This document shows positions 2,048-26,622 of a stretch of 32,250 bases of DNA, one piece after another (within the stretch, counting starts at the first letter, position 1; every line of letters begins with the position of its first letter). The notes below the pieces were generated by a model. It ran no database searches, was not told the DNA's origin, and worked only from the letters and a program-made list of their open reading frames with translations. The stretch is from Candidatus Acidiferrales bacterium (GTDB lineage Bacteria > Acidobacteriota > Terriglobia > Acidiferrales > UBA7541). Made by a program: the position numbers and the translations under genes. The DNA lies in contig DATEME010000122.1 of assembly GCA_035275865.1 (NCBI GenBank), positions 1-32,250 of the forward strand. Reading direction: 5' to 3'.

Positions 2048-2572
2048 ATGGCAAGACAGAGCGCACAACACAAACTGGACCGTGTTCGCCCGCCCCGCGT
2101 GCAGATTACCTATGACGTTGAAGTCGGTGGTGCCATAGAAATCAAGGAACTGCCGTTCGTCGTCGGCGTGCTGGGAGATTTCACAGGCCAGCCTCAGGAA
2201 CCGCTCCCCAGACTGAAGGACCGCAAGTTCGTGGAAGTTAATCCCGACAACTTCGACAGCGTGCTCGAAGGCATGAAGCCCCACCTTTCCTACGCCGTGG
2301 AAAACAAGCTCAGCGAAGATCCCAATGCTCCCCAGCTCAAGGTCGATCTCAAATTCAAGAAGATGGAAGACTTCGAACCGGCAAACGTGGCGAAGCAGGT
2401 CAAGCCGCTGAAAGATCTCATGGATCTGCGGACCCGCCTCGCCGACCTCCGCGGCAGCATGCAAGGCAACGACAAGCTCGAGGAACTGCTCCTGGATGCG
2501 GTCGGGAATACTGAAAAACTTGAAAAGCTGAAGGGCGAAATCAAACCGGGCGATGGAGGCTCCAATGGCTGA
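2048..2572 (+). CDS. tssB: T6SS small sheath subunit TssB (VipA/ImpB)
   Basis: The 174-aa N-terminus MARQSAQHKLDRVRPPRVQITYDVEVGGAIEIKELPFVVGVLGDFTG is the hallmark TssB signature. GGAAGG RBS lies 7 nt upstream of the ATG. It overlaps tssC by 8 nt (ATGGCTGA). Confidence 0.95.
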   Translation: MARQSAQHKLDRVRPPRVQITYDVEVGGAIEIKELPFVVGVLGDFTGQPQEPLPRLKDRKFVEVNPDNFDSVLEGMKPHLSYAVENKLSEDPNAPQLKVDLKFKKMEDFEPANVAKQVKPLKDLMDLRTRLADLRGSMQGNDKLEELLLDAVGNTEKLEKLKGEIKPGDGGSNG

Positions 2573-4052
2573 CGCAAAAGTTGCAAACACACAAGCCGCT
2601 GCGGCGGCTGAAACGCAGGAGCAAAGCCTCCTAGACCAGATCGTAAGCGACGGCCGGCTGGGCACGGACGCCGTCTCGCGCGAGCGCGGAAAGAATCTCG
2701 TGAAGGAGTTCGTTTCACAGATTCTCGAAGGCTCGATGACTGTCGCGAAGGATGCCGAGATGATGATCAACGCGCGCATCGCGCAGATCGATCATCTCCT
2801 CTCGATTCAGCTCAACGAGATTATGCATCACCAGTCATTCCAAAAGCTGGAAGGCTCCTGGCGCGGCCTGAAGCACCTCATGGATCACAGCGAGACCGGT
2901 ACCGGCTTGAAAATTCGCGTTCTGAACGTCAGCAAGAAGGAATTGCTGCGCGATATCGAAAAGGCGCCTGAATTTGACCAAAGCGCGCTCTTCAAGAAAG
3001 TCTACGAGGAAGAATACGGCGTGTTCGGAGGCGCCCCGTTCGGCGCGCTGGTCGGCGATTATGAATTCGGCAAGCATCCCGAAGACGTGGCCTTGCTCGA
3101 GGGCATTTCGCATGTTGCGGCCCAAGCTCACGCCCCCTTTGTCAGCGCAGCTGCGCCGGACCTGCTCAATCTGGAGAGCTTCACTTCGCTCGATGCGCCG
3201 CGCGATCTGGCCAAGATTTTTGACAGCACCGAGTATGCGAAATGGAAATCGTTCCGCCAGGGGGAGGACTCCCGCTACGTGGCGCTTTGCCTGCCGCGCA
3301 CGCTGTCCCGAGTTCCTTATGGCAAGGACACCAAGCCGATCGAGGAATTTGCCTACGAGGAGCACGTTGACGGCACCGACCACTCCAAGTACCTCTGGAT
3401 GAACGCCGCCTATTCGCTCGCCACCCGCATGACGAATTCCTTCGCTCAATATGGAATGTGTGTGGCCATGCGCGGCGTCGAGGGTGGCGGCTTGGTCGAG
3501 GGTCTCCCAGTCCACAATTTTTACACGGACGAGGGCGACCTCGCGCTCAAGTGCCCAACGGAAGTGCCGATTACGGATCGTCGGGAAAAAGAACTGGCGG
3601 ACCTCGGTTTTGTGCCTCTCGTTCACTGCAAGGGCACGGACTACGCGGCGTTCTTTAGCGTACAAAGCGCGCAAAAACCTAAGGTCTACGATTCGGATTC
3701 GGCGAATGCCAACGCGCGCTTGTCAGGACAATTGCCGTATATCATGGCCGTCTCCCGCTTCGCTCATTACCTCAAGGCCATGATGCGCGACAAAATCGGA
3801 AGTTTTATGTCGCGTGACGAAGCGGAGTCGTTCCTGAATCGATGGATCACGAAGTACGTCACTCCGGACGATACAGCGTCGCCTGCCGTGAAAGCACAGC
3901 GGCCCCTCCGCGAAGCCCGCATCGACGTGGTGGAAGTTCCGGGAAAGCCTGGAGTCTATCGCGCCGTAGCCTTTTTGCGGCCTCACTTTCAGTTGGACGA
4001 ACTTACTGTTTCTTTGCGCTTGGTGGCGGAACTTCCTGCGCCGGCCAAATAG
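2565..4052 (+). CDS. tssC: T6SS large sheath subunit TssC (VipB/ImpC)
   Basis: TssC-typical blocks: APFGALVGDYEF, APFVSAAAP, RYVALCLPR, YLWMNAAY, LADLGFVPLV, SRFAHYLK, FLNRWITKYV, RPLREARIDVVEVPGKPGVYRAVAFLRPHFQLDEL. The track ORF opens at 2553. ATG 2565 is preferred because GGAGG sits 5 nt upstream and it is stop/start coupled to tssB. Confidence 0.95.
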   Translation: MADAKVANTQAAAAAETQEQSLLDQIVSDGRLGTDAVSRERGKNLVKEFVSQILEGSMTVAKDAEMMINARIAQIDHLLSIQLNEIMHHQSFQKLEGSWRGLKHLMDHSETGTGLKIRVLNVSKKELLRDIEKAPEFDQSALFKKVYEEEYGVFGGAPFGALVGDYEFGKHPEDVALLEGISHVAAQAHAPFVSAAAPDLLNLESFTSLDAPRDLAKIFDSTEYAKWKSFRQGEDSRYVALCLPRTLSRVPYGKDTKPIEEFAYEEHVDGTDHSKYLWMNAAYSLATRMTNSFAQYGMCVAMRGVEGGGLVEGLPVHNFYTDEGDLALKCPTEVPITDRREKELADLGFVPLVHCKGTDYAAFFSVQSAQKPKVYDSDSANANARLSGQLPYIMAVSRFAHYLKAMMRDKIGSFMSRDEAESFLNRWITKYVTPDDTASPAVKAQRPLREARIDVVEVPGKPGVYRAVAFLRPHFQLDELTVSLRLVAELPAPAK

Positions 4053-4141
4053 GTCCGGCTGGGGAAACTCGCTTCGCGCGTATCGTGCAGTCGGGCCCAG
4101 CGGTTGCCATACCTAAAATTCATCGAGCATAAGGAGACGAG

Positions 4142-4621
4142 ATGGGAAATCTGTTCTTGAAGATCAAGAGCATCCCGGGATCCAGCAAGATCCAGGGGAT
4201 GGAAAATGCAATTGAGATCTTTAATTTTTCATGGGGCGCCAGCCTCGCGGGGGTCGACTCGGCAACGAAAGGTGAAACGGTCGGGCATCCGAACTTGACG
4301 GATCTTTCCATCAGCAAAGCCGTTGACAAGGCTTCGCCCCTCCTGTTCGCGAATATGACCAGCGGAAAGAGGCTCACTGACGATGTGGAGCTGTTCGTTC
4401 AGAAGACTCTCGACCAAAAGTCCGTGACTTATTATCACCTCAAGCTTAAGGGAGCCGTCGTCAACTCTTACAACGCATCTGGCGCCAGAGACGATAGCCC
4501 AACGGAATCCGTGACTTTCAACTTCCAAAAAATCGAGTTCTCGCATGACGAGGAAGAGGGCGGCAAAATGAAGGGTGCCGTTACCAAGGGCTGGGATATA
4601 GTAACGCACAAAGCAAGCTGA
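4142..4621 (+). CDS. hcp: T6SS inner tube protein Hcp (TssD)
   Basis: 159 aa. MGNLFLKIKSIPGSS...IEIFNFSWGAS...LTDLSISKAVDKASPLLFANMTSGKRL...ESVTFNFQKIEF...KGWDIVTHK matches the Hcp1 family layout. AAGGAG RBS at 4131-4136. Confidence 0.93.
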   Translation: MGNLFLKIKSIPGSSKIQGMENAIEIFNFSWGASLAGVDSATKGETVGHPNLTDLSISKAVDKASPLLFANMTSGKRLTDDVELFVQKTLDQKSVTYYHLKLKGAVVNSYNASGARDDSPTESVTFNFQKIEFSHDEEEGGKMKGAVTKGWDIVTHKAS

Positions 4622-4640
4622 TCCCGGTTTGCCGATAAAC

Positions 4641-5378
4641 ATGGCGAGCCCAACCACAGCAAAGCGTCTCTTTGAGGAAGGAAAAGTTCGGGCGGCCGCG
4701 AAGGAGCTTACGGAATACCTTCGCGACCACCCAGCGGACTCCACGCAACGAACATTCCTCTTCGAGCTCCTTTGTGCTTCCGGCGATCTCGTCCGCGCCG
4801 AAAAGCAGCTGAGCGTTCTCTCTCAGGGCGGCGCAGAAACGGAGATGGGTGCCGTTCTCTACTACTCGGCTTTGAATGCTGAAAAGCTTCGTAACGAGAC
4901 GTTCAATAAGGCCGGCTTCTCAAAGCACACCTCGTCCGCGCCGGTGACGGGCAAGCTCAACGGCCGCCCGTTTCAATCCTTGTGCGATGCCGATCCCGAC
5001 CTCGGAGGACGCCTGGAGGTCTACGCAGCTGGCGCTTATCTCTGGATTCCTTTCGAGCACATCGAATCACTACAAATGGAGGCGCCGCGCCGCTTGCGTG
5101 ACACGCTTTGGGCGCCTGCCATGATTCGAACGGGCCCGGCGTTTGAGAGCACCGAGCTCGGCGAAGTGCTGATTCCGGTGATCTATCCGTTTTCATGGAA
5201 GAACGAAAACGAAGCCGTGTGGCTCGGTCGCGTAACCGAATGGGCCGCCGACGAAAACGGAACCGAATACCCGTCCGGCCAAAAGATTCTTCTCGTGGAC
5301 GGCGAGGAAGTCCCGTTCCTTGAAGTCCGTTCGATCGAGTTCGATAAGCAGATCGCGGCTCCGGCAGCCGCAAACTAA
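4641..5378 (+). CDS. tagJ: T6SS accessory protein TagJ (ImpE/SciE family)
   Basis: TPR-like N-terminus (LFEEGKVRAAAKELTEYLRDHPADSTQRTFLFELLCASGDLVRAEKQL). The C-terminal block GRLEVYAAGAYLWIPFEHIESLQMEAPRRLRDTLWAPA...GRVTEW...LLVDGEEVPFLEVRSIEFD closely parallels P. aeruginosa TagJ1 as I remember it. The track start is TTG 4629; ATG 4641 is preferred. Confidence 0.85.
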   Translation: MASPTTAKRLFEEGKVRAAAKELTEYLRDHPADSTQRTFLFELLCASGDLVRAEKQLSVLSQGGAETEMGAVLYYSALNAEKLRNETFNKAGFSKHTSSAPVTGKLNGRPFQSLCDADPDLGGRLEVYAAGAYLWIPFEHIESLQMEAPRRLRDTLWAPAMIRTGPAFESTELGEVLIPVIYPFSWKNENEAVWLGRVTEWAADENGTEYPSGQKILLVDGEEVPFLEVRSIEFDKQIAAPAAAN

Positions 5379-5394
5379 AACGGAACTGAAAACA

Positions 5395-7245
5395 ATGCCC
5401 CTCCGCGAAGGCTTGCTCGACCCTATTTCCGCCGAAAATCCTAGCGGCATCGATGTCCGTTACGACTCGAAGCTGCTTCTTTACGACAAGATCAAGGAAG
5501 CCCGCCGCGAAGACGACGGCCTCGACCAAGGCGAATGGCAGCAGGAACGAAAAACCGCCGATCTTCCCTTCGTCCTGAAAAGCACTCAGGAAGCTCTCGC
5601 TACCAAAACAAAAGACCTTCAGCTTGCCGCATGGCTCTGTGACGCGCTTTTGCGGACGGAAGGATTCGGCGGCCTTCAGCAGGGCCTCGCTTTGTGCCAA
5701 GGTCTTATCGCCAATTTCTGGGACACGCTCTTCCCTCCCATCGAAGACGGAGACCTGGAACTCCGCGCCGCGCCACTCGATTGGCTCGGAACCGCACTCG
5801 ACATTCCGCTGAAAAAAGTCCCTCTGGCTCGCGCTGGCTACGGCTTCTTCAAATATAAGGAATCCCGCCTCGTCGGTTACGACGCGCCCACCCTCGGCGA
5901 CAAAGAAAGAGAGCAGCGCGCACAGCGAATCAGCGAGGGCAAGCTCGCCGCTGAGGACTTTGATAAAGCATTCAATGAAACGCCGAAGGCATTTTACGTT
6001 CAGGCTGAAAAAGATCTCGACGGCTGCCTCGCCACGCTCAAGAGTGTCGACGAAACCTGCGATGAAAAATTCGGTAGTGCCGGCCCGTCCTTGGGCAAGC
6101 TAAAAACGACCCTCGAGGAGATTCGCCACACGGTCCACGGCCTGCTCCAGAAGAAACGCGAAACCGAACCCGACCCTGTGGAAGAAAGTGCCTCCACAGC
6201 GCCGGGTTCCGACGGCGCTGCCGTGGGCGGAGGCGGAGCGCAGGGTACCGGCCGCAGCGCGATTCCCAGCATCGTCATCTCGATAATGACGAGCTCCGAA
6301 CCCGCCGACCGCCGCGAAATGATCGCGAATGTCGCGAAGGCCGCCGCCTTCCTCCGTCAGCGCGAACCGCACAGCCCGGCTCCTTACCTGATGATGCGCG
6401 GCCTCCGCTGGGGCGAACTGCGCGCCGCAGCACGCCTCTCCGACGCCGCGCTTCTTGAAGCGCCGCCGACGGAACTTCGCCAGCAGATCAAACGCCTCGC
6501 CTTGGCCGAAAAATGGGCCGAGCTTCTCGAGACGGCGGAAAACGCGATGTCTCTGCCGTGCAGCCGCGCGTGGCTTGATTTGCAGCGACACGTCGTCGAA
6601 GCCTGTACCGCCCTGGGTGGCGACTACGAAGGGATCGCTGCGGCCATTCGCCTGGAACTGAAAGTTCTGCTCCACGATGTACCCGAGCTGCTTGACGCCG
6701 CCATGCTGGACGATACGCCCGCAGCCAATGCCGAAACGCGCGCATGGCTTCTGCAATTGATGCGCCCCGCCTCCAAGCCGCAGCCGGCCGCGGACGGCGG
6801 AGCCTCCACAGAAGCGGCTTCGGAGAGCGCTCCTTCGCCCGGCCGGTCCGCGCCCGAACCGTCCTGGCCGTCGAAAACCGCCGATAGCTACGACGTTGCG
6901 ACCGAAGCCCTCAAGGCCGGTCAGGAGAAAAAGGCGTTCGACATCATGCAGCAGGAGATCGCTCGCCAAACGTCCGGACGAGGCCGCTTCCAACGAAAGC
7001 TTCAATTGATTCAGCTCTGCGTCGCCTCGGGCAAGGACGCCATCGCCCAGCCTCTGCTTGAAGATCTCGCCGCCGCGATCGAAAACCACAAGCTCGACGA
7101 ATGGGAAGACCGGGAACTCGTCGCGGATGCGCTCACCGCGCTGATGAACCTGAGCAGGCGAATCCAGGAAGACCCGTCGGAGAAGCAGAAAATATTCGAG
7201 CGCATCTGCCGCCTGGACCCCGTGCGCGCGCTGAGCGCAGGATAA
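5395..7245 (+). CDS. tssA: T6SS TssA, ImpA-N plus VasJ-type C-terminal region, with two low-complexity linkers
   Basis: ImpA N-terminal signature MPLREGLLDPISAENPSGIDVRYDSKLLLYDKIKEAR. Middle block EPHSPAPYLMMRGLRWGEL. VasJ-like block LLDAAMLDDTPAANAETRAWL. ATG 5395 is chosen over track start 5320 because tagJ ends at 5378. Ala/Gly/Pro/Ser-rich linkers lie near 6180-6250 and 6770-6870. Confidence 0.85.
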   Translation: MPLREGLLDPISAENPSGIDVRYDSKLLLYDKIKEARREDDGLDQGEWQQERKTADLPFVLKSTQEALATKTKDLQLAAWLCDALLRTEGFGGLQQGLALCQGLIANFWDTLFPPIEDGDLELRAAPLDWLGTALDIPLKKVPLARAGYGFFKYKESRLVGYDAPTLGDKEREQRAQRISEGKLAAEDFDKAFNETPKAFYVQAEKDLDGCLATLKSVDETCDEKFGSAGPSLGKLKTTLEEIRHTVHGLLQKKRETEPDPVEESASTAPGSDGAAVGGGGAQGTGRSAIPSIVISIMTSSEPADRREMIANVAKAAAFLRQREPHSPAPYLMMRGLRWGELRAAARLSDAALLEAPPTELRQQIKRLALAEKWAELLETAENAMSLPCSRAWLDLQRHVVEACTALGGDYEGIAAAIRLELKVLLHDVPELLDAAMLDDTPAANAETRAWLLQLMRPASKPQPAADGGASTEAASESAPSPGRSAPEPSWPSKTADSYDVATEALKAGQEKKAFDIMQQEIARQTSGRGRFQRKLQLIQLCVASGKDAIAQPLLEDLAAAIENHKLDEWEDRELVADALTALMNLSRRIQEDPSEKQKIFERICRLDPVRALSAG

Positions 7246-7254
7246 TCCGTCAAA

Positions 7255-7752
7255 ATGGCGCGATCTCAAGGCGATCTTACCGTCACGTTGTCCGTGCTGG
7301 ACCGCTTGATCGATAAAGAGCCTAGGATGGCCTCCGAGGCTCCTCTCACGCGCTCCCAATCGGTTCGCATGATGAAGGCCGCTGTGCAACGCGACCTCGA
7401 GTGGCTCCTGAACAGCCGCAGAATTTTCCTCGAGCCCGATGAAAGCCTGAAAGAGGTGAATCGCTCGGTCTACGTTTACGGCCTGCCGGATTTTTCCAAT
7501 TATGGTGCCGCGTCCGCGCCCGATCGCGCGAAGCTGCTTCGCCAGTTGATGACGGCGATCAAGCTCTTCGAGCCGCGCCTTCTCAACGTTCGCCTCGTGC
7601 CCATCGAATCCGAAGACGCCGGTGTCCAGGAGCTTCGCTTCCGCATCGAAGGTCTGCTCGCCATGGATCCTGCGCCCGAGCCGGTTTCATTCGACACTGT
7701 AGTCGAGCTTCGCTCCAGCAATTGTCGCGTCTCCGGAGGACCAAATGCGTGA
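7255..7752 (+). CDS. tssE: T6SS baseplate wedge protein TssE (gp25/GPW-like)
   Basis: 165 aa with LSVLDRLID, DLEWLLNSRR, SVYVYGLPDF and IKLFEPRL blocks typical of TssE. Starts 9 nt after the tssA stop and overlaps tssF by 8 nt. Confidence 0.9.
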   Translation: MARSQGDLTVTLSVLDRLIDKEPRMASEAPLTRSQSVRMMKAAVQRDLEWLLNSRRIFLEPDESLKEVNRSVYVYGLPDFSNYGAASAPDRAKLLRQLMTAIKLFEPRLLNVRLVPIESEDAGVQELRFRIEGLLAMDPAPEPVSFDTVVELRSSNCRVSGGPNA

Positions 7753-9586
7753 CGATTTGCTCCTCTATTACGAGCGTGAACTCGATTACATCCGCAAGAT
7801 GGCGGCGCAGTTCGCCGAAAAGAATCCCAAAGTCGCCTCACGCCTCGTGCTCGAACCGACGAAATGCGAGGACCCTCACGTCGAGCGGCTTCTCGAAGGA
7901 TTCGCCTTTCTCGCCGCGCGCGTTCACTTGAAGCTCGACGATGAATTTCCCGAAATCAGCGAAGCGCTGCTTAGCGTCGTTTACCCGCAACTCGTCCGGC
8001 CTCTTCCCTCGATGTCCATCGTCGAATTTCAACTCGACCCTGAAAAAGGGAAGCTCACCACCGGCCTTCCGATTGCCCGCGGCTCTTCTCTCTTCTCGCG
8101 CCCCGTGGCTGGTGTTCCCTGCACCTTCAAGACGTGCTACGACACCACTCTCTGGCCCGTAAGCGTCGGCTCCGGTGAATTTCGCGCGCCGAGCCGCCTG
8201 CAGCCGCCGGTCAAGACTGTCGACTCGACAGCTGCCGTGCGCATCGAACTTCGCGCCGCGCCCGACGTAAATCTAAAGGAATTGAAGATCGACCGCCTGC
8301 GCTTCTATCTCGATGGCGAAGGCGGCCTGATCAACACGCTTTACGAATTGCTCTTCACACGCCTTACGCGCATCATCGTCCGCGATCCCACTCCCGGCTC
8401 GAAGGTGCCTCCCGTCGCGCTCCCCGTGAGCGCATTGCGCCCTGTCGGTTTTGAGTCCGACGAAACTCTGCTGCCTCACGTGGACCGCTCGTTTTTCGGG
8501 CATGCTTTGCTGATGGAATATTTCGCGTTTCCGGAAAAATTCCTGTTTATCGATGTCGCCGAACTCGAGGCTGTGTGGGAAGCCGGCTTCAAAGATGCCG
8601 TGGAATTCGTTTTTCTTATTTCGGAAGTCGAGGGCGACGAACGTCGTCAGCGCCTCGAACTCGAAATCTCGAAAAAATCTTTTCGCCTCGGCTGTACGCC
8701 GATAGTCAATCTTTTCACTCAGGTTGCCGAGCCGATTCAACTCAGTCAGCGCAAATACGAACACCCGATCGTCCCGGATGTCCGCCGCCCCTATTCCACG
8801 GAAGTCTTCTCCGTCGATGAAGTGGGCTGCATTAACACGGCCACGCAGCAGACCTCAACCTTCGAGCCTTTTTATTCCTTGCGCCATTCCACGCGCGGAC
8901 GCAAGCAAGCCGCGTTCTGGCTCGCGCGCCGCCGCCCATCGGAGCGTCCCAACGACGACGGCACGGACATGTTCCTTTCGCTCGTCGATCTCTCGATGCA
9001 GCCGATGAATCCCGATTCGAGCATCCTCTCGATAAAGACGACCTGCACGAATCGCGATCTCCCCTCTCGTCTGCCTTTTGGGAACGAAGACGGCGACTTC
9101 GAGCTGGAGGGTTCCTCGTCACTTAAGCGAATCGTCGCATTGCGGAAGCCGACTCCGACCGTTCGGCCCATATCCGGCAAAAGCACGATGTGGCGCCTCA
9201 TTTCACATCTGTCGCTAAATTATCTTTCTCTCGTCGAAGGCGGGCGCGACGCGCTCCAGCAGATTCTGCGCCTTTACGACATTGGCCGTTCGGCCTATTC
9301 CCAGAACGTAATCGAGAGTATCCTTCGGGTACGCAGTGCGAAGCATTTCACTCGGGTTTCCGGCAATAACAGCATTACGTTTGCGCGAGGCACGCGCGTC
9401 GAAATCGAGCTCGACGAATCGCAGTTCGTCGGCAGCGGAGCGTATCTATTCGCCGCCGTGCTCGAACGGTTTCTCGGCTTGAGCGTTTCGCTCAATAGCT
9501 TCACGCAATTAGTCGTCACTACACCGCAAAGAAAGGCGCCGTTGCACGAATGGCAACCGAGAGCAGGACGCAGGATCTTGGTCTAG
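7745..9586 (+). CDS. tssF: T6SS baseplate protein TssF (ImpG/VasA)
   Basis: 613 aa. MRDDLLLYYERELDYIRKMAAQFAEKNPKVASRL and DPHVERLLEGFAFLAARVHLKLDDEFPEI are classic TssF N-terminal blocks. Confidence 0.93.
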   Translation: MRDDLLLYYERELDYIRKMAAQFAEKNPKVASRLVLEPTKCEDPHVERLLEGFAFLAARVHLKLDDEFPEISEALLSVVYPQLVRPLPSMSIVEFQLDPEKGKLTTGLPIARGSSLFSRPVAGVPCTFKTCYDTTLWPVSVGSGEFRAPSRLQPPVKTVDSTAAVRIELRAAPDVNLKELKIDRLRFYLDGEGGLINTLYELLFTRLTRIIVRDPTPGSKVPPVALPVSALRPVGFESDETLLPHVDRSFFGHALLMEYFAFPEKFLFIDVAELEAVWEAGFKDAVEFVFLISEVEGDERRQRLELEISKKSFRLGCTPIVNLFTQVAEPIQLSQRKYEHPIVPDVRRPYSTEVFSVDEVGCINTATQQTSTFEPFYSLRHSTRGRKQAAFWLARRRPSERPNDDGTDMFLSLVDLSMQPMNPDSSILSIKTTCTNRDLPSRLPFGNEDGDFELEGSSSLKRIVALRKPTPTVRPISGKSTMWRLISHLSLNYLSLVEGGRDALQQILRLYDIGRSAYSQNVIESILRVRSAKHFTRVSGNNSITFARGTRVEIELDESQFVGSGAYLFAAVLERFLGLSVSLNSFTQLVVTTPQRKAPLHEWQPRAGRRILV

Positions 9587-10584
9587 ACAAGTCGACGCTC
9601 GAAGACGCGCTCCAAAAGGAGCCATGGTCGTTCGAGTTTTTTCAAGCGGTCACGCTCTTGCAGCGGCTTGCCACGGAGCGCCGGCCGGTTGGAAGATTCT
9701 CGAATCCTGACGACGAAGCCGTGCGCTTCTGCGGTAATGCCTCTCTCGGCTTCCCCGCAAGCTCGATTCAGAAAATCGAATGGCCTGAAGACGGTCCGCC
9801 CCGCATGACTGTTAATTTCATGGGACTCACCGGTCCGATGGGTGTGCTCCCTTATTGCTATACGGAGATGGTCCTTGAGCGCGAAAGAGCGAAAGATCGC
9901 TCCTTCCAGTCCTTCCTCGATATCTTTCACCATCGAATGGTTTCCTTTTTTCATCGTGCGTGGGAAAAGTACCGTTTCCCGGTCACTCATTCCAGCGGCC
10001 ATGAGGATCTCTTCGAACATCATATGCGCGACCTCATCGGTCTCGGCACTGCCGGGCTTAACGGCCGTCAATCGCTCGCGGACGACGGTTTGCTTCATTT
10101 CGCCGGTCTTTTGGCCCGTCAGTCTCGCTCCGCGCAGGCTCTCGAGCAGGTTCTAATGGCCTATTTTGATGTCCCGGTCGATATCGAGGAGTTCGTCGGC
10201 GGTTGGTACCGGCTCGATGCCTCCACCCAATGCGCGGTCGGCGAAGAAGCGGGCGATTCGGAAAGGCTCGGCATGGGCGCTGTCGTCGGCGACGAAATAT
10301 GGGACCAGCAATCCCGCGTTCGCGTCAAGCTCGGACCGATGCCGCTCGAAAAGTATCGCCAGTTTCTTCCTGACGGCGATGCGTACGAATCCTTGAAGGC
10401 CATCACACGTTTTTTTTCGAATGATGAATTCGATTTTGAAATTCAGTTGATCCTGGAACGCGATCACGTCCCGCGCTGCGAAGTCGGCGCCGCGGAAGCC
10501 ACAGCCCCTCGTCTCGGGTGGGTCACATGGCTAAAATCGGCGCCGCTTTCCCGCGATCCGGACGAAACGATTCTAAATCTCTGA
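9550..10584 (+). CDS. tssG: T6SS baseplate protein TssG (ImpH/VasB)
   Basis: 344 aa with PWSFEFFQAVTLLQRL and NFMGLTGPMGVLPYCYTE blocks. 37-nt overlap with tssF; no alternative in-frame start seen downstream. Confidence 0.9.
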   Translation: MATESRTQDLGLDKSTLEDALQKEPWSFEFFQAVTLLQRLATERRPVGRFSNPDDEAVRFCGNASLGFPASSIQKIEWPEDGPPRMTVNFMGLTGPMGVLPYCYTEMVLERERAKDRSFQSFLDIFHHRMVSFFHRAWEKYRFPVTHSSGHEDLFEHHMRDLIGLGTAGLNGRQSLADDGLLHFAGLLARQSRSAQALEQVLMAYFDVPVDIEEFVGGWYRLDASTQCAVGEEAGDSERLGMGAVVGDEIWDQQSRVRVKLGPMPLEKYRQFLPDGDAYESLKAITRFFSNDEFDFEIQLILERDHVPRCEVGAAEATAPRLGWVTWLKSAPLSRDPDETILNL

Positions 10585-10598
10585 CTGCGAGGTGTCTC

Positions 10599-13340
10599 AT
10601 GGGCCTGAACCTGAAAGCACTTATCGGCAAACTCAATGACCAGGCGCGCTCGGCGCTCGAAGGTGCCGCTGGCCTCTGCCTCTCGCGTACGCATTACGAC
10701 ATCGAAATCGAGCATTACCTCACGAAGCTGCTTGAGTCGCAGGCGTCCGATTTCGCAAAAATCGTAAAGCACTTCGGCGTCGACAAGTCCCGCCTCACGG
10801 GCGAGCTCATGCGCAGCATGGACAAACTAAAGTCCGGCAACGCTCGCACGCCCGCCATCAGCCCCAGCGTGCTCAAGATGCTCACTCAGGCCTGGACGAT
10901 CGGCTCGATCGATTTCAACGCCTCCGAAGTCCGAACCGGCTTCACGATCCTGGCTCTCGTGATGGACGACGAACTCGCCCGCATTACCCGCGAGATCAGC
11001 CGCGAATTCCAAAAGATCCAGCCCGAGGCCCTCCGCAACGAATTCGCCAAGATCGTTGCCGATTCCTCCGAGGAAACCGTCACCGCCGTCGCTGATTCCG
11101 CGGGCGCGCCCGCCGCTCCAGGTCGCGCAGTCGGCGGCAAGACGCCCAATCTCGATCAGTTCACCGTCAACCTTACCGAGAATGCCAAAAACGGCAAGAT
11201 CGATCCCGTTCTCGGCCGCGACTTCGAAATTCGCCAGGTCATCGACATTCTCACTCGCCGCCGCCAGAACAATCCGATCCTCACAGGCGAAGCGGGCGTG
11301 GGAAAGACGGCCGTGGTCGAAGGCTTCGCGCTCCGGGTCGCTCAAGGCGACGTTCCTCCACCGCTTCGCAACGTCACAGTCCGCACGCTGGACCTCGCCC
11401 TTCTTCAGGCCGGTGCCGGCGTAAAAGGTGAGTTCGAAAATCGCCTCAAGGGTCTCATCGAAGAGGTGAAATCTTCTCCGACCCCGATCATTCTTTTCAT
11501 CGACGAAGCTCACACGATGATCGGCGCCGGCGGCCAAGCCGGCCAGAATGACGCAGCCAATCTTTTGAAGCCTGCTCTCGCGCGCGGCGAACTTCGCACC
11601 ATCGCCGCCACGACGTGGGCCGAATTCAAAAAGTATTTCGAGAAAGATCCGGCTCTGGCTCGGCGCTTCCAGGTTGTAAAGGTCGAAGAGCCTACCGAGC
11701 AACAGTGCATGGTGATGATGCGCGGCATCGTTGGTTCGCTCGAAAAGCATCACAAAGTCCGCATCCTCGATGAAGCCGTTGCGGCAGGTGTGCGGCTCTC
11801 GCACCGCTATCTTGCAGGCCGCCAGCTGCCGGATAAGGCCGTCAGCGTCCTCGATACAGCCTGCGCGCGCCTTTCGCTCGGCCAGAACGCCACGCCGCCC
11901 GCCATCGAAGACGCAATTCGCCAGATCGACGATTTCGGCGTTCAACAACGCATCCTCGAACGCGAAATGGTCGTCGGCGTCGATCACACCGAGCGTCTCG
12001 CGCAACTTGCGAGCCAGAAAGCGTCAGTTCAGGCGAATCTCAAAGCCTTGCAGGATCGTTGGGACAAAGAACGCGGGCTCGTCGTTCAAATCCGCGACAT
12101 TCGCGAGAAACTAGAACGGGGCGCCGCCACCGTGGCCGCGGCGAAAACCTCTCCCGCCGAAAGCGGCAACGGCGATTCGGCCGCCGCCGCTGTAGCCTCC
12201 GCCGGAGGCGCGGCCGTAGCCACCGCCGCACCGGCCGCGGCTCCCGAGCAAACTCCCGAAGAGCTTCGCGGCCAGCTCTTGAAACTGGAAAATGAACTTT
12301 CCGCGCTGCAAGGCGAGACCGGTCTCATCCGCGTCTGCGTTGATGCGCAGATCGTCGGCGAAGTCATCTCCGGCTGGACCGGCATTCCTGTCGGCAAAAT
12401 GCTGAAAGACGAAATCGCCACAATTCTTTCGCTCCAGCAGCATCTCGGCAACCGCGTCATCGGCCAGCCATTCGCTCTCGACGTTATCAGCCAACGCATA
12501 CAGACCTCCCGCGCCAGTCTCGACGATCCAGTGAAGCCCGTCGGCGTCTTCATGCTCGTCGGCCCCAGCGGCGTCGGCAAGACAGAAACAGCGCTCGCGC
12601 TGTCCGATCTGCTCTACGGCGGCGAACACAATTTAATTACCATCAACATGTCCGAATTCCAGGAGGCCCATACCGTGTCGACGCTGAAGGGCTCACCTCC
12701 CGGTTACGTCGGCTATGGCGAAGGTGGCGTGCTCACGGAAGCCGTCCGTCGCCGGCCGTATTCCGTCGTACTTCTCGACGAAGTCGAAAAAGCGCATCCG
12801 GACGTGCTCGAACTCTTCTTCCAGGTCTTCGACAAAGGCCGTATGGAAGACGGCGAAGGCCGCGAAATCGACTTCCGCAACAACATCATCATTCTCACCA
12901 CCAACGCGTGCACCGATCAGCTCATGAAGCTGTGCGCAGATCCCGAGACGATGCCCAACGCTCTGGCGCTCGTCAACACGCTAAAGCCGGAGCTCAACAA
13001 AATCTTTAAGCCGGCATTCCTCGGCCGCATGGTGATCGTCCCGTATTACCCAGTCCGAGACGAGGCGCTCAAGAAGATCATCACGTTGAAGCTCGGCAAG
13101 ATTCAGCGCCGCATCCAGGAAAACCACAAAATCGCGCTGACCTACGATGACTCGCTGATCGACGAGGTCGCGAAGCGCTGTACCGAAGTCGAGTCCGGCG
13201 CACGCAACGTGGACAACATCCTTACCAATTCGCTTCTGCCTGACGTCTCGCGCCAGCTTCTCGGACGCATGGCCGAAGGCGAAAAACTGCAATCGATTCA
13301 CGTGTCCATTGGCGAAAATGGCGATTTTGTATATTCCTGA
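10599..13340 (+). CDS. clpV: T6SS AAA+ ATPase ClpV (TssH)
   Basis: Two AAA+ modules. The first has Walker [10 protein letters not shown] and Walker B ILFIDEAH. The second has Walker [10 protein letters not shown] and Walker [12 protein letters not shown]. Clp-N-like start [30 protein letters not shown] 10599 is chosen over track start 10518 because tssG ends at 10584. Confidence 0.93.
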
Positions 13341-13369
13341 CGCGAGCATCGCAGGCGATCGGAAATAGC

Positions 13370-14275
13370 ATGAGCAATCCACAAGCCCGCGTGCCGGGCG
13401 CGTTGGGCGTTGCACAGGTCGGCGAACGGGACCTCGGCTTCCTCGGTCAGGCGATGCAGACCATGCGTCTCGCCGCTGTCTCGTCCACAAGAGCCGGCGA
13501 TTTTACGCCTTGCGGCAATGGCGATAGCGCCAACGAGGCTCTGATTGCCGAATTGCAGCATGCCGTTACGGCTGCGTTGCCTCGTCTCCCGGCATTCGCG
13601 CGCGGCATGATTCTCACCACCCCCGCAGCTGTTCCCTTTCTGATCGGCCGGGCCGGATATCACGCGTATCACGAACTTCGCAGCGGTCTTCACCCCATCG
13701 ACGCCGCTCATCTGCCCGCTCGCGTCACCGAGGTCTTCGGCAACAGCATCGACTTCGCGCGCGTCTGGATCAACAACAAGACCGGCGCGCAAGGCCGGGC
13801 GTTTACCGCCACCATCGCGATCAACTATCCCCCGGGCATTTCCAGGCGCGTCAATGTGATGAATCTGGGCGCGTCATACGACGAAGACACGCTTGTGCAC
13901 GAACTCACCCACGTCTGGCAATCTCAACACCACTCTGATCCCTTGCATTACATGCGCAACTGCCTCGGATGCCAAGGTCTGGCGCTTTGGAAGAATCAGG
14001 ATCTCGTCAAGATGGCGCCCAATCCTGCCGTCACTTCCCATAGAGGCTTTCCGATGGATTTTCCCTATTCGGCCTACGCCTATGAGACGGACGCCAAGCT
14101 GCCCTTTTCCCACTACGGCGGCGAACAGATCGCTCAGCAGGTCATGAGAGGCGTGGACAAAATCATCAAGGTCGTAAAGGCCGCGCCCGCTAACACCGTC
14201 GTTTCGGACAATGTGGATTCCCTGAACAACAGTACTGCCGTTACCAATCGGCTCAATAGTGGAGTCGCCATTTGA
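13370..14275 (+). CDS. HExxH zinc-peptidase-like protein (DUF4157-like), candidate T6SS cargo/effector
   Basis: 301 aa with no signal peptide or TM segment visible. Contains GAQGRAFTATIAIN...DTLVHELTHVWQSQHH, with His spacing H-E-x-x-H-x5-H. Gaps of 29 nt to clpV and 30 nt to vgrG imply co-transcription. Start uncertain (weak RBS; in-frame ATG also at 13454). Confidence 0.6.
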   Translation: MSNPQARVPGALGVAQVGERDLGFLGQAMQTMRLAAVSSTRAGDFTPCGNGDSANEALIAELQHAVTAALPRLPAFARGMILTTPAAVPFLIGRAGYHAYHELRSGLHPIDAAHLPARVTEVFGNSIDFARVWINNKTGAQGRAFTATIAINYPPGISRRVNVMNLGASYDEDTLVHELTHVWQSQHHSDPLHYMRNCLGCQGLALWKNQDLVKMAPNPAVTSHRGFPMDFPYSAYAYETDAKLPFSHYGGEQIAQQVMRGVDKIIKVVKAAPANTVVSDNVDSLNNSTAVTNRLNSGVAI

Positions 14276-14305
14276 GAACTGCCGCTCAAGATCGGGAGGT
14301 GAAGT

Positions 14306-16306
14306 TTGGCTAGCTCGGGTAAGTTCACGCAGGAAAACAGGTTCATCTCGCTCAACACACCTCTCGGCGAGGATGTCCTCCTCTTGGCGAGCTTCACCGG
14401 CCATGAAGGTATCTCCCGCCTCTTCCAGTTCAACATCGACCTGCTCTCCGAGAAAAAAGACATCTCCTTCAAGGATATCGTCGGCCAGAAGGTCACCATC
14501 AAGATGGGACTGACCGACGGCTCTTCATTCCGCTATTGGAATGGTTACGTAAGCCGCTTCGCCCAGAGCGGCACTGACGCGCGTTTCGCTCACTATCAAA
14601 TGGAAGTCGTGCCTTGGCTCTGGTTTCTCACCCGCAGCGCCGATTGCAGGATCTTTCAGAAGGAATCGATACTCGATATCTTTGACGATGTCATTTCGGA
14701 CAACGGCTTCTCCTCTTCCGATTACAAGAAGTCCCTGAGTGGCGCCTACAATCCCGTCGAGTATTGCGTCCAGTACCGCGAGACCGACTTCAACTTTATC
14801 TCGCGCCTCTTCGAGCACGCCGGAATTTACTATTTCTTTGAGCACTCCGAGGACAAGCACACTCTCGTTCTCGGCGATGCCCCGAGCGCTCATCAGAATT
14901 GCCCCATGCAGTCTCCCGCGCGATACTCACCTAACTCTGCTAACCAGGTCGACGAGGTTATTACGAGCTTCCGGCTCGAACAGGAGCTTCGCACCGGCAA
15001 TTACACGCTTCGCGACTACAACTTCGAAACGCCCGCCGCCAATCTCAACGCCACCGATCCCACCATCTATCCCGTCGCCAAGAATACCGACTACGAAATC
15101 TACGACTATCCCGGCATGTACACGGCCGGCGCGGATGGCAATGCCCTCGCGAAAATCCGCATGCAGGAGGAAGAGGCGCCTCATGAAGTCGCTTCCGGTT
15201 CGAGCATCTGCCGCGCACTCGCTCCCGGTTTCAAGTTCGACCTCGAAGAGTTCGACCGCGACGACAGGAATAAATGCTACCTGCTCACGGATGTCCAGCA
15301 CGTCGCGTCCAATGCCGGGACGTACTACTCGGGCGCGGGCTCTTCATCGCACTATTCGAACCGTTTCTCCTGCATCGACGCATCGTTTCAATATCGCGCG
15401 CCTCGGCTGACTCCAAAGCCGTTTATTCAAGGATTGCAGACCGCCGTCGTCACAGGACCGAGCGGCGAGGAAATCTACACGGACAAATACGGCCGCGTGA
15501 AGGTGCAATTCTTCTGGGATCGCCTCGGTCAAAAGAACGAAGATACGTCTTGCTGGGTGCGTGTTTCGCAGCTCTGGGCTGGCAAGGGCTGGGGCGGCAT
15601 GTTCATCCCCCGCATCGGCCAGGAAGTCATCGTCAGCTTTCTCGAAGGCGACCCCGATCGCCCCATCATTACAGGACGCGTGTACAACGCCGATCAGAAC
15701 GTCCCCTACGTGCTGCCCGATAACGGTACTGTCTCAGCGATCCGCTCGCGCAGCTCCAAAGGCGGCGCCGCTGCTACTGCCAACGAAATTCGCTTCGAAG
15801 ACAAAAAAGGCAGCGAGCAATTCTTTATCAATGCCGAAAAAGACATGGACGTCTTCGTCGAAAACGATTCGCGCGAAAACGTAGGCAATAACCACAGCCT
15901 GACTATAAAAAAGGATCACATGGAAGACATTGGCGGCGACGCGCACCTCAACGTCACCGGCAACATCAATCAAAAAGCCGGCCAGAACGTCTCATTGCAG
16001 ATCGGCCAGAATCTCTACGAAAAATCCGGGATGAACTATGCGCACGAAGCCGGCACCGAAATCCATTTGAAGGCCGGCATGAACGTCGTCATCGAATCGG
16101 GCGTCGAACTGACGATCAAAGCGGGCAGCAATTTCGTCAACATCGGCCCCGCCGGCGTCGCCATCAGCGGCACGCTCGTCCTCATCAACAGCGGCGGCGC
16201 GGCAGGTTCGGGCGGCGGCGCAAGTACGACCAGCCCGACTAAACCGGAGGCAGCCGACGATGCCAACACATCCAGCGGAGGCAAATTCGGCATCAAGCTA
16301 GGCTAG
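14306..16306 (+). CDS. vgrG: T6SS spike protein VgrG (TssI), no C-terminal effector domain
   Basis: 666 aa. Blocks RFISLNTPLGEDVLLLASFTGHEGISRLFQFNIDLLS, YCVQYRETDFNFISRLFEHAGIYYFFEH, GRVKVQFFWDR and WVRVSQLWAGKGWGGMFIPRIGQEVIVSFLEGDPDRPIITGRVYN (gp27/gp5-like). TTG start with GGGAGG RBS upstream. Ends in a short Gly/Ala/Ser tail. Confidence 0.93.
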   Translation: MASSGKFTQENRFISLNTPLGEDVLLLASFTGHEGISRLFQFNIDLLSEKKDISFKDIVGQKVTIKMGLTDGSSFRYWNGYVSRFAQSGTDARFAHYQMEVVPWLWFLTRSADCRIFQKESILDIFDDVISDNGFSSSDYKKSLSGAYNPVEYCVQYRETDFNFISRLFEHAGIYYFFEHSEDKHTLVLGDAPSAHQNCPMQSPARYSPNSANQVDEVITSFRLEQELRTGNYTLRDYNFETPAANLNATDPTIYPVAKNTDYEIYDYPGMYTAGADGNALAKIRMQEEEAPHEVASGSSICRALAPGFKFDLEEFDRDDRNKCYLLTDVQHVASNAGTYYSGAGSSSHYSNRFSCIDASFQYRAPRLTPKPFIQGLQTAVVTGPSGEEIYTDKYGRVKVQFFWDRLGQKNEDTSCWVRVSQLWAGKGWGGMFIPRIGQEVIVSFLEGDPDRPIITGRVYNADQNVPYVLPDNGTVSAIRSRSSKGGAAATANEIRFEDKKGSEQFFINAEKDMDVFVENDSRENVGNNHSLTIKKDHMEDIGGDAHLNVTGNINQKAGQNVSLQIGQNLYEKSGMNYAHEAGTEIHLKAGMNVVIESGVELTIKAGSNFVNIGPAGVAISGTLVLINSGGAAGSGGGASTTSPTKPEAADDANTSSGGKFGIKLG

Positions 16307-16400
16307 GTCTTTGTGGTACAGCAAGTCTTGGGTGCAGGTTTGTACTTCCCATAGTTCATAGGGCGCTGCTCGCTGCGCCCCTTAGAGGAGGAGTAGCGAA

Positions 16401-16691
16401 ATGCCGCCAGCAGCCCGCGTGTCAGACATGCACACCTGCCCTATGGCAACCGGTCCAGTGCCTCATGTAGGCGGACCCATCCTGCCTCCCTGCGAGCCGA
16501 CCGTCATGATCGGAATGCTCCCCGCCGCCCGAGTCACGGACATGGCCACCTGTGTTGGCCCACCGGATACCATCGTGAAAGGCTCCAGCACCGTAATGAT
16601 CGGCAATCTGCCTGCTGCCCGCGTCGGCGATCAGACCGCCCATGGCGGCGTCATCATCCTGGGCTGCTTCACCGTCATGATCGGCGGCTAA
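16401..16691 (+). CDS. PAAR-domain spike-tip protein (minimal, no toxin extension)
   Basis: 96 aa with three PAAR repeats (PPAARVSD, LPAARVTD, LPAARVGD) and ...VMIG(G) strand ends. GGAGGAG RBS upstream. Confidence 0.92.
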   Translation: MPPAARVSDMHTCPMATGPVPHVGGPILPPCEPTVMIGMLPAARVTDMATCVGPPDTIVKGSSTVMIGNLPAARVGDQTAHGGVIILGCFTVMIGG

Positions 16692-21355: not shown

Positions 21356-21586
21356 GGCACCTTTGTGAATTTTTCTCAGATCCGCCCCAACCGGGAAGGC
21401 GTCTGTAAGTCCAATGCTCACGCGGCGAATCGACTTGAATAACAAAACGGCCAGAGAGTGTCAACGAACATCTCCGGCCGAGCCATTTAGGTGTGCGCGC
21501 TCTCCCCTTGCACCGTTTCTGGATGCCAAGCCGGGCGGGGCCGTTGCCTGCGCGTTTTGGTACTCTGGAGCAGAAGGAGCAGGAAG

Positions 21587-23255: not shown

Positions 23256-24215
23256 TTGATAGAAGTAAAGGATCTAACGAAGTCCTACGGCCAGGTTACC
23301 GCAGTCGATCACATCTCATTTGGCGTAAATAAGGGCGAAATCCTCGGCTTTCTCGGCCCCAACGGCGCCGGGAAGACCACGACGATGCGCATCCTGACGG
23401 GCTTTATGCCGGCCACCTCTGGCACCGCCAGCATCGCCGGTTTTGACGTCACAAATGAGTCGCTCGAAGTTCGCCGCCACATCGGCTACCTGCCGGAAGC
23501 GCCACCCGTTTACCCCGATATGAGCGTCGAATCTTATCTCGACTTCGTCGCGCGCATTAAAAACGTCCCGGCGGAAAAGCGCCGCGCGCGTGTTGACGAC
23601 GCAATGGCGAAAACGAATCTCAGCGAGCGCCGTCACGAGTTGATCAAGCGCCTCTCACGTGGGTACAAGCAGCGCGTCGGCATCGCGCAGGCGCTCGTAC
23701 ATGATCCGGACGTAATCATCCTCGATGAGCCGACCGTCGGCCTCGATCCAAAACAAATCATTGAAGTGCGCCACTTGATCAAAAGCCTCGCGGGCAATCA
23801 CACGATCATCTTGTCCACGCACATCCTGCCCGAAGTAAGCATGACGTGCGACCGCGTCGTGATCATCAACAAAGGCAAGGTCGCCGCCGTCGATACGCCG
23901 CAGAATCTCACGTCGCAGCTCAAAGGCGGCCTTCGCGTTCGGGTCGAAGCGCGGGCGCCCGAAGCCTCATTGAAAGACCTGCTCGCCAAAGTGCCCGGCG
24001 TGAAAGGCGTGCAGATCGAAGGCGCGCACAACGACGGCCACACGATCGCCACGGTCGAAGGAACGCAAGGCAAGGACATCCGCAGCGAAATCGCCGCTGG
24101 AATCGTCGGCAAGGGTTGGCCGCTTTACGAATTGCGCGGCGTCAGCATGAGTTTGGAAGACATCTTCCTTCAGCTCACCACTGATGATGCCTCGCACGCG
24201 CAGCCGGCAAATTAA
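23256..24215 (+). CDS. ABC-2 type transporter ATP-binding protein (GldA-like)
   Basis: Walker A GPNGAGKTT, signature LSRGYKQRVGIAQAL, Walker B VIILDEPTVGLD and H-loop LSTHIL. TTG start with GGAGG 6 nt upstream. Confidence 0.9.
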   Translation: MIEVKDLTKSYGQVTAVDHISFGVNKGEILGFLGPNGAGKTTTMRILTGFMPATSGTASIAGFDVTNESLEVRRHIGYLPEAPPVYPDMSVESYLDFVARIKNVPAEKRRARVDDAMAKTNLSERRHELIKRLSRGYKQRVGIAQALVHDPDVIILDEPTVGLDPKQIIEVRHLIKSLAGNHTIILSTHILPEVSMTCDRVVIINKGKVAAVDTPQNLTSQLKGGLRVRVEARAPEASLKDLLAKVPGVKGVQIEGAHNDGHTIATVEGTQGKDIRSEIAAGIVGKGWPLYELRGVSMSLEDIFLQLTTDDASHAQPAN

Positions 24216-24254
24216 TCGTCAAAGGTCGCTGGAATCATCGGGGCGGAGGTAAGA

Positions 24255-25028
24255 ATGCAAGGGATGTACGCGATTTATCGCAAGGAACTGAGCCATTATT
24301 TCGTATCGCCGATGGCTTATGTCGTCATCGGTATTTTCATCCTGTTTTGCGCGTTCGTCTTCAACTACGACACGCAGGCGGTCATATTCCAGTCGACGCA
24401 GGCGCAGATGCAGGGCATGAGCATGCCGATGGACCTGCCCGGCCAGGTGATGACAGGCTTCTTCATGTTCCTCGCCACAATGCTCCTCTTCGTTACGCCG
24501 ATGCTCACCATGGGCATCTACGCCGAAGAACGCAAGCGCGGCACCATGGAACTGCTCATGACGTCGCCCGTCACCGAAATCCAAATCGTCCTCGGCAAGT
24601 TCTTCGCCGCATTCACATTGTTTATCGCAATGTTGGTTCCCACGCTGGTGCCGGTCACGTTCCTGTATTTCACGAGTGAACCGCACTTCCCTCTCCGCAT
24701 CATCGCGTGCGGTTACCTCGGCGCGATTCTCGTGGGCGGCTCGCTGATAGCGCTGGGGACGTTCATTTCATCACTGACGGAGAACCAGCTGATCGCCGCC
24801 GTGCTCACGTTCGCCGTGTTTCTCATCATCTGGATTATCGATATCCTCGGCAGCCCAACGGGCAATTCCGCCACGGTGCTCGGATATTTTTCCGTCGTGC
24901 GCCACTTCCAGGATTTCGCACGCGGCGTGATCGACACTTCAAGTTTGGTCTACTTCGCCAGTCTGATGGTCTTTTTCGTTTTTCTCACCGTGCGCTCGGT
25001 CGATTCGATGCGCTGGCGGCGGGCATAG
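24255..25028 (+). CDS. ABC-2 family transporter permease (GldF-like)
   Basis: 257 aa and multi-pass hydrophobic. The N-terminus YRKELSHYFVSPMAYVVIGIFILF is typical of ABC-2 permeases. GGAGG RBS upstream. Confidence 0.85.
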   Translation: MQGMYAIYRKELSHYFVSPMAYVVIGIFILFCAFVFNYDTQAVIFQSTQAQMQGMSMPMDLPGQVMTGFFMFLATMLLFVTPMLTMGIYAEERKRGTMELLMTSPVTEIQIVLGKFFAAFTLFIAMLVPTLVPVTFLYFTSEPHFPLRIIACGYLGAILVGGSLIALGTFISSLTENQLIAAVLTFAVFLIIWIIDILGSPTGNSATVLGYFSVVRHFQDFARGVIDTSSLVYFASLMVFFVFLTVRSVDSMRWRRA

Positions 25029-25060
25029 TGCGCAGGAATTAGGCGCCGGAGGGATTAGGA

Positions 25061-26593: not shown

Positions 26594-26622
26594 ACGGATT
26601 CCGGCAGGCGGCAGGCAAACGT

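Follow-up and report, generated by a model that had tools for sequence, protein, structure and literature searches.

The 32,250-nt stretch of DNA analyzed here (the window, positions 1 to 32,250 of contig DATEME010000122.1, assembly GCA_035275865.1, Candidatus Acidiferrales bacterium) carries a type VI secretion system (T6SS) operon in which a gene for a 301-aa protein lies between clpV and vgrG (Table 1). A preliminary inspection of the letters alone (the sequence-only reading) had singled out this gene as a candidate T6SS effector, and its position and length, as given there, agree with the list of open reading frames (ORFs). The gene starts with ATG and is separated by 30 nt from the clpV stop (13340) and by 30 nt from the vgrG start (14306), which has GGGAGG just 5' of it. 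The gene is clearly real, with orthologues at 63–78% identity and about 150 remoter relatives, and no GC anomaly or other signal of horizontal transfer was found near it. It had been called the only non-core gene of the operon, which is incorrect, as tagJ/impE (4629–5378) is accessory too.

Table 1. Features of the T6SS operon, the 301-aa gene and its product, in positions of the window
Feature	Position	Strand	Basis
T6SS core and accessory genes of the same operon: tssB, tssC, hcp, tagJ, tssA, tssE, tssF, tssG	2048..10584	+	Pfam, NCBIfam
clpV (tssH), directly 5' of the 301-aa gene	10518..13340	+	Pfam AAA_2, AAA_lid_9, ClpB_D2-small
301-aa ORF, putative T6SS cargo zinc peptidase (Tpe/VgrG2b-C-ter-like)	13370..14275	+	ORF list; orthologues 63–78% identical, same position
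Residues 1–47, candidate loading/recognition segment	13370..13510	+	AlphaFold2 (AF2), region-wise identity, alignment A1
C48-G-N-G-D motif, lone near-invariant cysteine	13511..13525	+	Cys statistics of representatives
Predicted catalytic domain, residues 105–301	13682..14272	+	Alignment A2; PDB profile match 6h56_A; AF2 model
HELTHVWQSQHH, predicted zinc-binding/catalytic helix (H177, E178, H181, H187, H188)	13898..13933	+	Invariant in A1/A2
YGGEQIAQQV, residues 249–258, E252 the probable third zinc ligand	14114..14143	+	Conservation, hhalign
vgrG without toxin extension, presumed effector carrier	14306..16306	+	Pfam Phage_GPD, Phage_base_V, Gp5_trimer_C
Minimal PAAR protein, 96 aa	16401..16691	+	NCBIfam T6SS_PAAR_dom; PF05488 on orthologues

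The 301-aa protein contains the motif GAQGRAFTATIAIN-(20 aa)-DTLVHELTHVWQSQHH, in which H177, E178, H181 and H187 are spaced HExxHxxxxxH and Q184 occupies the position of the metzincin Gly; both the layout and the Gln had been noted beforehand. Neither a signal peptide nor a transmembrane (TM) segment is evident (maximum Kyte–Doolittle 17-residue mean, 1.42), again as first described. The Pfam scan gave sub-threshold matches only (WLM, E 0.068; eCIS_core/DUF4157, 12.9 bits) and no eukaryote-like domain or motif, and there was no match in NCBIfam or among the PHROG families. A search of 5.8 billion proteins returned only 26 relatives, five of them orthologues of equal length (63–100% identity) and about 20 more distant proteins (33–45%) with an N-terminal PG_binding_1 domain.

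Profile comparisons were more informative than the single sequence. They were based on a full-length alignment (A1) and on an alignment of the shared C-terminal domain, residues 105–301 of the 301-aa protein (A2). The sole significant match of the A2 profile in the PDB (hmmsearch) was 6h56_A (E 8.4e-9, 38.5 bits), the C-terminal effector domain of Pseudomonas aeruginosa VgrG2b (Wood et al., 2019; PMC6899460). Using hhalign, A2 was aligned with 6H56 over 116 columns at 97.8% probability (E 1.3e-12), pairing FGxSIDFS with FGDSIDYS, HELTHVWQSQH with HEMTHVWQHQH and YGGEQ with YNIEQ, whereas the 301-aa sequence without a profile reached only E 0.057. An AF2 model of residues 105–301 alone had a pLDDT of 94.5 and a pTM of 0.91. 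Taken together, the profile comparisons show that residues 105–301 form a predicted zinc-peptidase domain homologous to the C-terminal toxin domain of VgrG2b (Tpe1 family), and the 301-aa protein is best described as a putative divergent variant of the Tpe/VgrG2b-C-ter metallopeptidase effector class.

The homology also bears on the catalytic class. VgrG2b is a gluzincin that has the HExxHxxxxxH spacing too, yet its third His is not a zinc ligand, and E983 is the third ligand in the crystal (PMC6899460). Counting along the 6H56 chain identifies the Glu of YNIEQ as E983, which is aligned opposite E252 of the 301-aa protein. E252 is probably the third zinc ligand, and because it aligns with E983, gluzincin appears the likelier class for the 301-aa protein, although the invariant H187 may serve as a ligand. 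Over 157 family members, the zinc-helix residues including H187 are conserved in 156 and E252 in 150, and H177, E178, H181, H187, Y236 and E252 are essentially invariant. The metzincin assignment of the sequence-only reading was accordingly dropped: the closest solved homologue, with the same His spacing, uses Glu as its ligand, Q184 replaces the Gly in all members, and no metzincin Pfam family scored above threshold for the 301-aa protein or its relatives.

Comparison of orthologous loci revealed a conserved setting and a fast-changing protein. The order clpV, 301-aa gene, vgrG, PAAR is invariant in loci L001, L003 and L009–L012, which come from Acidiferrales and other acidobacterial metagenome-assembled genomes (MAGs). 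Across these loci, TssC, TssF, TssG and ClpV are 93–97% identical to their counterparts in the window, TssE shows 90–93% and TssA 85–87% identity, and the values fall to 65–90% for VgrG and 63–78% for the 301-aa protein. Hcp (4142–4621), the secreted tube protein, is likewise divergent, with 62% identity to L001:778-1266. Such fast divergence of the 301-aa protein, VgrG and Hcp is, as far as sequence can tell, the pattern typical of secreted, diversifying components; no clean correlation between effector and VgrG divergence was seen across the orthologous loci.

In view of the T6SS operon, the conserved synteny, the fast divergence and the homology to VgrG2b C-ter and Tpe1, the proposal of a candidate T6SS effector stands, and we favor, with fair but far from complete confidence, the interpretation that the 301-aa gene encodes a secreted cargo effector of the acidobacterial T6SS. 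The protein would be loaded on the toxin-less VgrG/PAAR spike via its conserved, disordered N-terminal segment, since there is no adaptor gene and no Sec signal and since a protein of 32 kDa would be a large load for the Hcp lumen. It would then be fired into a neighboring cell, where the peptidase may attack the cell envelope, with peptidoglycan, peptidoglycan-associated targets or lipoproteins as its substrates. An envelope target is suggested by the PG_binding_1, OmpA-like and Amidase_2 modules to which the domain is fused in relatives, and by VgrG2b C-ter and Tpe1, which are lethal from the periplasm only; both are antibacterial T6SS toxins acting there, and their HExxH dependence has been established by experiment (PMC6899460). 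For VgrG2b, depletion of membrane lipoproteins and interaction with MltC, PBP5 and PBP6a were reported and peptidoglycan hydrolysis was undetected (PMC6899460).

To place the domain in a broader range of genomes, a pattern scan over one genome per species was carried out and gave 70 loci with the catalytic domain, spanning Acidobacteriota, Planctomycetota, Proteobacteria, Actinomycetota, Chloroflexota, Bacteroidota, Nitrospirota, Verrucomicrobiota and one Methanotrichaceae MAG. The most frequent architecture, in about 35 of the 70 loci, is PG_binding_1 followed by the domain, without a signal peptide; eight loci have DUF4157 followed by the domain, several encode short, domain-only proteins, and in several others the domain forms the C-terminal end of proteins of 700–2200 aa. 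More complex combinations occur as well, for example Amidase_2, PG_binding_1, OmpA and the domain in L052, or DUF4157, OmpA and the domain in L041. As for genomic context, four loci are acidobacterial T6SS operons as in the window, two lie beside clpV of a Bacteroidota-type T6SS (TssC PF17541, TssD PF17642), ten have DUF4157 in cis or nearby, and the remaining 54 belong to none of these types. An origin from endolysins or prophages was considered and rejected, as the catalytic domain had no PHROG, phage or plasmid match: the PHROG matches of relatives are confined to their PG_binding_1 part, a tblastn search with the domain was negative in 50,697 phage records, as were the searches of plasmid collections.

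The two Bacteroidota-type cases, L030:7470-8513 and L031:7584-8555, are PG_binding_1 fusions with the WQSQHH domain in T6SS-iii loci that also contain VipA and VgrG, and they represent a second, independent association of the domain family with T6SS. The L030 gene is divergent and adjoins clpV; the L031 gene and clpV are about 2.4 kb apart, and small ORFs lie in between. Downstream of the L031 family member, another HExxH protein (IIHEATHAIND) is encoded at L031:8807-9463.

The sequence-only reading had described the 301-aa protein as DUF4157-like, DUF4157 (eCIS_core, PF13699) being the domain known from extracellular contractile injection systems (eCIS). Against PF13699, the protein scored 12.9 bits, with a cut-off of 22 (E 0.13), over profile positions 55–77 of 79 (23 positions); the best family member reached E 0.0069, and the VgrG2b domain is also sub-threshold, at 13.3 bits. 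In contrast to these single-sequence scores, hhalign of A2 against an alignment of seven genuine DUF4157 domains (A5) gave 91.2% probability (E 1e-6) over 62 columns, which span FGxDFSxV, the (A/P)FT strand and the HExxH helix. Judged from these profiles, the likeness is a genuine remote homology at the superfamily level, and not membership of the family, so the description holds in the former sense only. Membership was rejected on the Pfam score and also on the co-occurrence of the domain with true DUF4157 in one polypeptide: eight relatives have a true N-terminal DUF4157 (seven by Pfam, E 1e-29 to 1e-35, and the eighth, L057, by a custom HMM), then a linker, then the catalytic domain at the C-terminus. 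The seven Pfam-confirmed fusions sit in real eCIS operons, because their neighbors include genes for Pvc16_N, sheath, gp19 tube and baseplate proteins, along with VgrG-like and AAA+WHD genes. The 301-aa protein has neither the N-terminal DUF4157-style position nor an eCIS operon around it, its locus being a T6SS. As side observations, the eCIS loci L041, L059 and L064 each have three to four DUF4157 paralogues, and L041 comes from the Methanotrichaceae archaeon MAG, in which the OmpA-like peptidoglycan-binding domain of the fusion protein is odd.

Toxins associated with eCIS have been described with this layout, a DUF4157 followed by a C-terminal toxin (PMC8213781, PMC11297309). Because true DUF4157 precedes the catalytic domain within the same polypeptide, the two are by their arrangement distinct modules, and the catalytic domain appears to fill the toxin slot of the eCIS fusions. 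As other lineages use it as the C-terminal payload of DUF4157-tagged eCIS proteins, the same domain would be a toxin module shared between contractile injection systems (T6SS-i, T6SS-iii and eCIS). The remote DUF4157 homology could alternatively mean that the 301-aa protein is a DUF4157-type adaptor, which recruits orphan effectors encoded elsewhere to the spike and is not itself a toxin. Its gene does lie directly 5' of vgrG, and DUF4157 genes are often found beside, not inside, eCIS toxins (PMC11297309). However, in the eCIS proteins the domain follows a genuine DUF4157, which is the toxin slot and not the adaptor slot, the catalytic set H177, E178, H181, H187 and E252 is invariant in 150–156 of the 157 members, and hhalign places the domain nearer to the toxin domain of VgrG2b (97.8%) than to DUF4157 (91%). 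We regard an adaptor role as most improbable.

Several results weigh against the effector interpretation. When the AF2 models (pLDDT 76 and 94.5) were compared with the PDB by Foldseek, nothing was found at E < 0.6 and 6H56 was unlisted, and the search of BFVD gave weak hits only, to SprT-like (probability 0.8, E 0.07), IrrE-like and M34 zincins. A small downstream ORF for a periplasm-targeted immunity protein (Tpi/PA0261) invariably adjoins VgrG2b-type genes (Wood et al., 2019; PMC6899460). Immunity genes were sought in six loci among the ORFs of 35 aa or more that either strand carries between the end of clpV and a point past PAAR, and in the 70 loci among downstream ORFs. In the window and in five orthologous loci (L003 and L009–L012), no plausible small same-strand ORF of this kind occupies the 30-nt gaps on either side of the 301-aa gene, and none follows vgrG or PAAR, in agreement with what had been noted for the window; antisense ORFs that overlap the gene have no constant start or length and were judged spurious. 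Across the wider family, no recurrent neighbor or partner gene was found, as 100 Pfam families adjoin the 59 loci outside the acidobacterial T6SS and the seven eCIS fusions. Homologues lying mostly outside contractile-system loci had been named in advance as evidence against the proposal, and 54 of the 70 loci indeed have no contractile system nearby. This was not taken as refuting it, because the 16 of 70 beside T6SS or eCIS/DUF4157 genes look, on an informal judgment, far above chance. Finally, presence in every orthologous operon, upstream of vgrG and inside the core, would suit a conserved accessory factor.

Such a factor would be a T6SS accessory enzyme that remodels the producer's own wall, as TagX or MltE do, or that processes or loads a T6SS component. 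It would need no immunity protein, which fits the six loci without an immunity gene, as well as the position between core genes and the ties of relatives to peptidoglycan-binding modules. On the other hand, the 301-aa protein has no signal peptide or TM anchor with which to reach its own periplasm. TagX-type enzymes carry one or the other. In addition, the protein diverges far more than the machinery (63–78% vs 93–97% identity), and both eCIS proteins and giant polymorphic proteins carry the domain as their C-terminal payload. In the literature, DUF4157 has been suggested to act in eCIS as a chaperone or loader (PMC11297309), which would be compatible with an accessory enzyme, but the nearest characterized homologues are toxins (PMC6899460). 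Altogether, we find this alternative distinctly unlikely.

The lack of an immunity gene may also argue, as had been proposed, against an antibacterial effector–immunity pair. An effector directed against non-kin targets harmless to the producer, such as eukaryotic cells (fungi, protists), Gram-positive walls or extracellular matrix, would require no immunity gene. The host is a soil-type acidobacterium, many eCIS toxins also have no immunity genes (PMC8213781), and VgrG2b was initially reported to act on eukaryotic cells through the microtubule network (PMC4453011). Nevertheless, the PG_binding_1, OmpA-like and Amidase_2 partners indicate bacterial peptidoglycan, the characterized homologues kill bacteria from the periplasm (PMC6899460), and the Pfam scan, as noted above, revealed nothing eukaryote-like in the 301-aa protein, so a non-kin target is unlikely. 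The lack of a linked immunity gene could be explained by an unlinked one, by intrinsic resistance, by a non-kin target or by latency of the enzyme. One narrow subgroup of distant relatives may have a linked partner: in the closely related L035–L039 and L060 (Acidobacteriaceae MAGs, about 8535–8960), a conserved ORF of 136–150 aa, apparently a multi-pass membrane protein, lies 9–89 nt 3' of the gene for PG_binding_1 plus the domain. This is the only subgroup with a conserved downstream ORF, which is possibly its immunity gene, and the ORF has no homologue in the window.

The N-terminal part of the 301-aa protein shows two further features. Residues 1–47 are predicted to be disordered (AF2 pLDDT <50), yet they are 83–89% identical in four of the five orthologue comparisons and are usually the best-conserved region of the protein. 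They probably serve in recognition or loading and seem to stand where distant relatives have the PG_binding_1 domain. A query of the first 105 residues, run to find other effectors that share them, matched nothing, not even the orthologues, and so carries no information. Immediately after this segment comes C48. Among representative proteins with PG_binding_1 and the domain, 71 of 72 have a lone Cys about 13 residues past the PG_binding_1 domain, in the consensus C-G-N-G-D-P; the search for representatives used the full-length alignment, and its list, diluted by proteins with several PG_binding_1 domains, served for architecture and Cys statistics only. C48 is retained in the 301-aa protein although the PG_binding_1 domain is lost, in a region of low AF2 confidence (pLDDT 42–53). 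A disulfide as the sole reason for C48 was rejected, as the upstream Cys of the family does not co-vary with C198/C201 and 57 members keep it with neither of these.

In matrix metalloproteinase (MMP) zymogens, a PRCGxPD cysteine switch lies between the prodomain and the zinc catalytic domain. By analogy, the WQSQHH domain could be a latent, zymogen-type cell-envelope metallopeptidase payload of T6SS-i, T6SS-iii and eCIS, in which a C48 switch replaces the immunity protein: C48 would cap the zinc until delivery, or until oxidation in the target. If true, this would explain the neighborhoods without immunity genes in the window operon and around most relatives, but we consider it a very doubtful proposition.

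With regard to the remainder of the operon, VgrG consists of three Pfam domains, with a sub-threshold DUF6484 match within the OB domain, and PAAR is minimal, so that both are toxin-free, as first supposed; the match of PAAR to NCBIfam T6SS_PAAR_dom is itself sub-threshold (33.8 bits vs a cut-off of 124, E 2.7e-8). The genes tssJ, tssK, tssL and tssM are absent throughout the window (1–32250), so that TssK and the membrane complex either have their genes outside it or are missing. The listed clpV (GTG, 940 aa) and tssA (TTG, 641 aa) overlap their preceding genes by about 60 nt (10518–10600 and 5320–5410) and exceed the called orthologues by about 30 aa; for these reasons, their true starts are probably further downstream, that of clpV about 80 nt 3' of the listed GTG. 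The operon (2048–16691) is bordered by a divergent methyltransferase gene upstream and by genes for a response regulator and a PAS protein downstream. Beyond it, a 954-aa predicted lipoprotein with He_PIG/Ig-like repeats (18581–21445, minus strand) is kept beside the T6SS in L001 and L003, and in L003 its gene is directly convergent with PAAR. An ABC transporter cluster (23256–27969; ABC_tran, ABC2 membrane, ABC_transp_aux/DUF7088 and DUF4340) follows the T6SS locus and is mostly syntenic in L001 and L003, both of which end before the DUF4340 gene. The cluster resembles the gliding-associated transporters of the GldA/F/G type.

Four known systems provide points of comparison. With MMP zymogens, the family shares the order of a three-helix PG_binding_1 domain, a lone Cys in C-G-x-x-D and a zinc peptidase. 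However, the catalytic domain is not a metzincin, the distance from the Cys to the catalytic domain is about 55 residues and not about 10, the PG_binding_1 domain of the family matches bacterial and phage peptidoglycan-binding domains in the PDB search and not MMP prodomains, and the 301-aa protein has lost that domain. T6SS effectors that target peptidoglycan and T6SS accessory hydrolases (Tae/Tse1, VgrG3 with PG_binding_1, TagX) resemble the family in the link to a peptidoglycan-binding module and in T6SS delivery, as proposed here, and a structure of the Vibrio cholerae VgrG3 type (4nso_A) was weakly matched via the PG_binding_1 domain of relatives. By contrast, the catalytic domain is unrelated in sequence to the amidase, muramidase and L,D-endopeptidase families, and T6SS effectors that target peptidoglycan have adjacent immunity genes, unlike the 301-aa gene. 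The family also has in common with DUF4157/eCIS_core (PMC8213781) FGxDFSxV, a β-strand with (A/P)FT, the HELTHVxQ helix and an association with contractile systems; it differs in an extra C-terminal half with a conserved Glu and in the invariant WQSQH(H) extension, which is absent from DUF4157.

The closest likeness is to the Tpe–Tpi/VgrG2b family (Tpe1, ACIAD0053; PDB 6H56), which is T6SS-linked, shares the skeleton FGxSIDYS...HExTHVWQxQH...YxxEQ, occurs as stand-alone cargo as well as in fused forms, and is equally sub-threshold for Pfam DUF4157. Like its members, the 301-aa gene stands beside T6SS, vgrG and PAAR genes, between clpV and vgrG in six loci. The differences are considerable: identity to VgrG2b is only about 25%, and the 301-aa protein has an insertion of about 25 residues between the HExxH helix and the Glu helix, a C-terminal extension of about 45 residues with a DNVxSL motif, and the N-terminal CGNGD motif. 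Moreover, its gene has no adjacent immunity ORF and lies upstream, not downstream, of vgrG, and its relatives are mostly PG_binding_1 fusions from many phyla, unlike the proteobacterial Tpe/VgrG2b proteins. These results would extend the VgrG2b/Tpe class, so far known from Proteobacteria with an obligatory immunity partner, to Acidobacteriota and to a large unannotated domain family without a Pfam, NCBIfam or PHROG model. As a putative payload in three kinds of contractile injection system, the domain may account for some DUF4157-tagged eCIS toxins with no recognizable toxin domain. The consistent lack of an immunity gene raises a testable question of self-protection, and the recurrent peptidoglycan-binding fusions give the search for the substrate of these effectors a concrete starting point.

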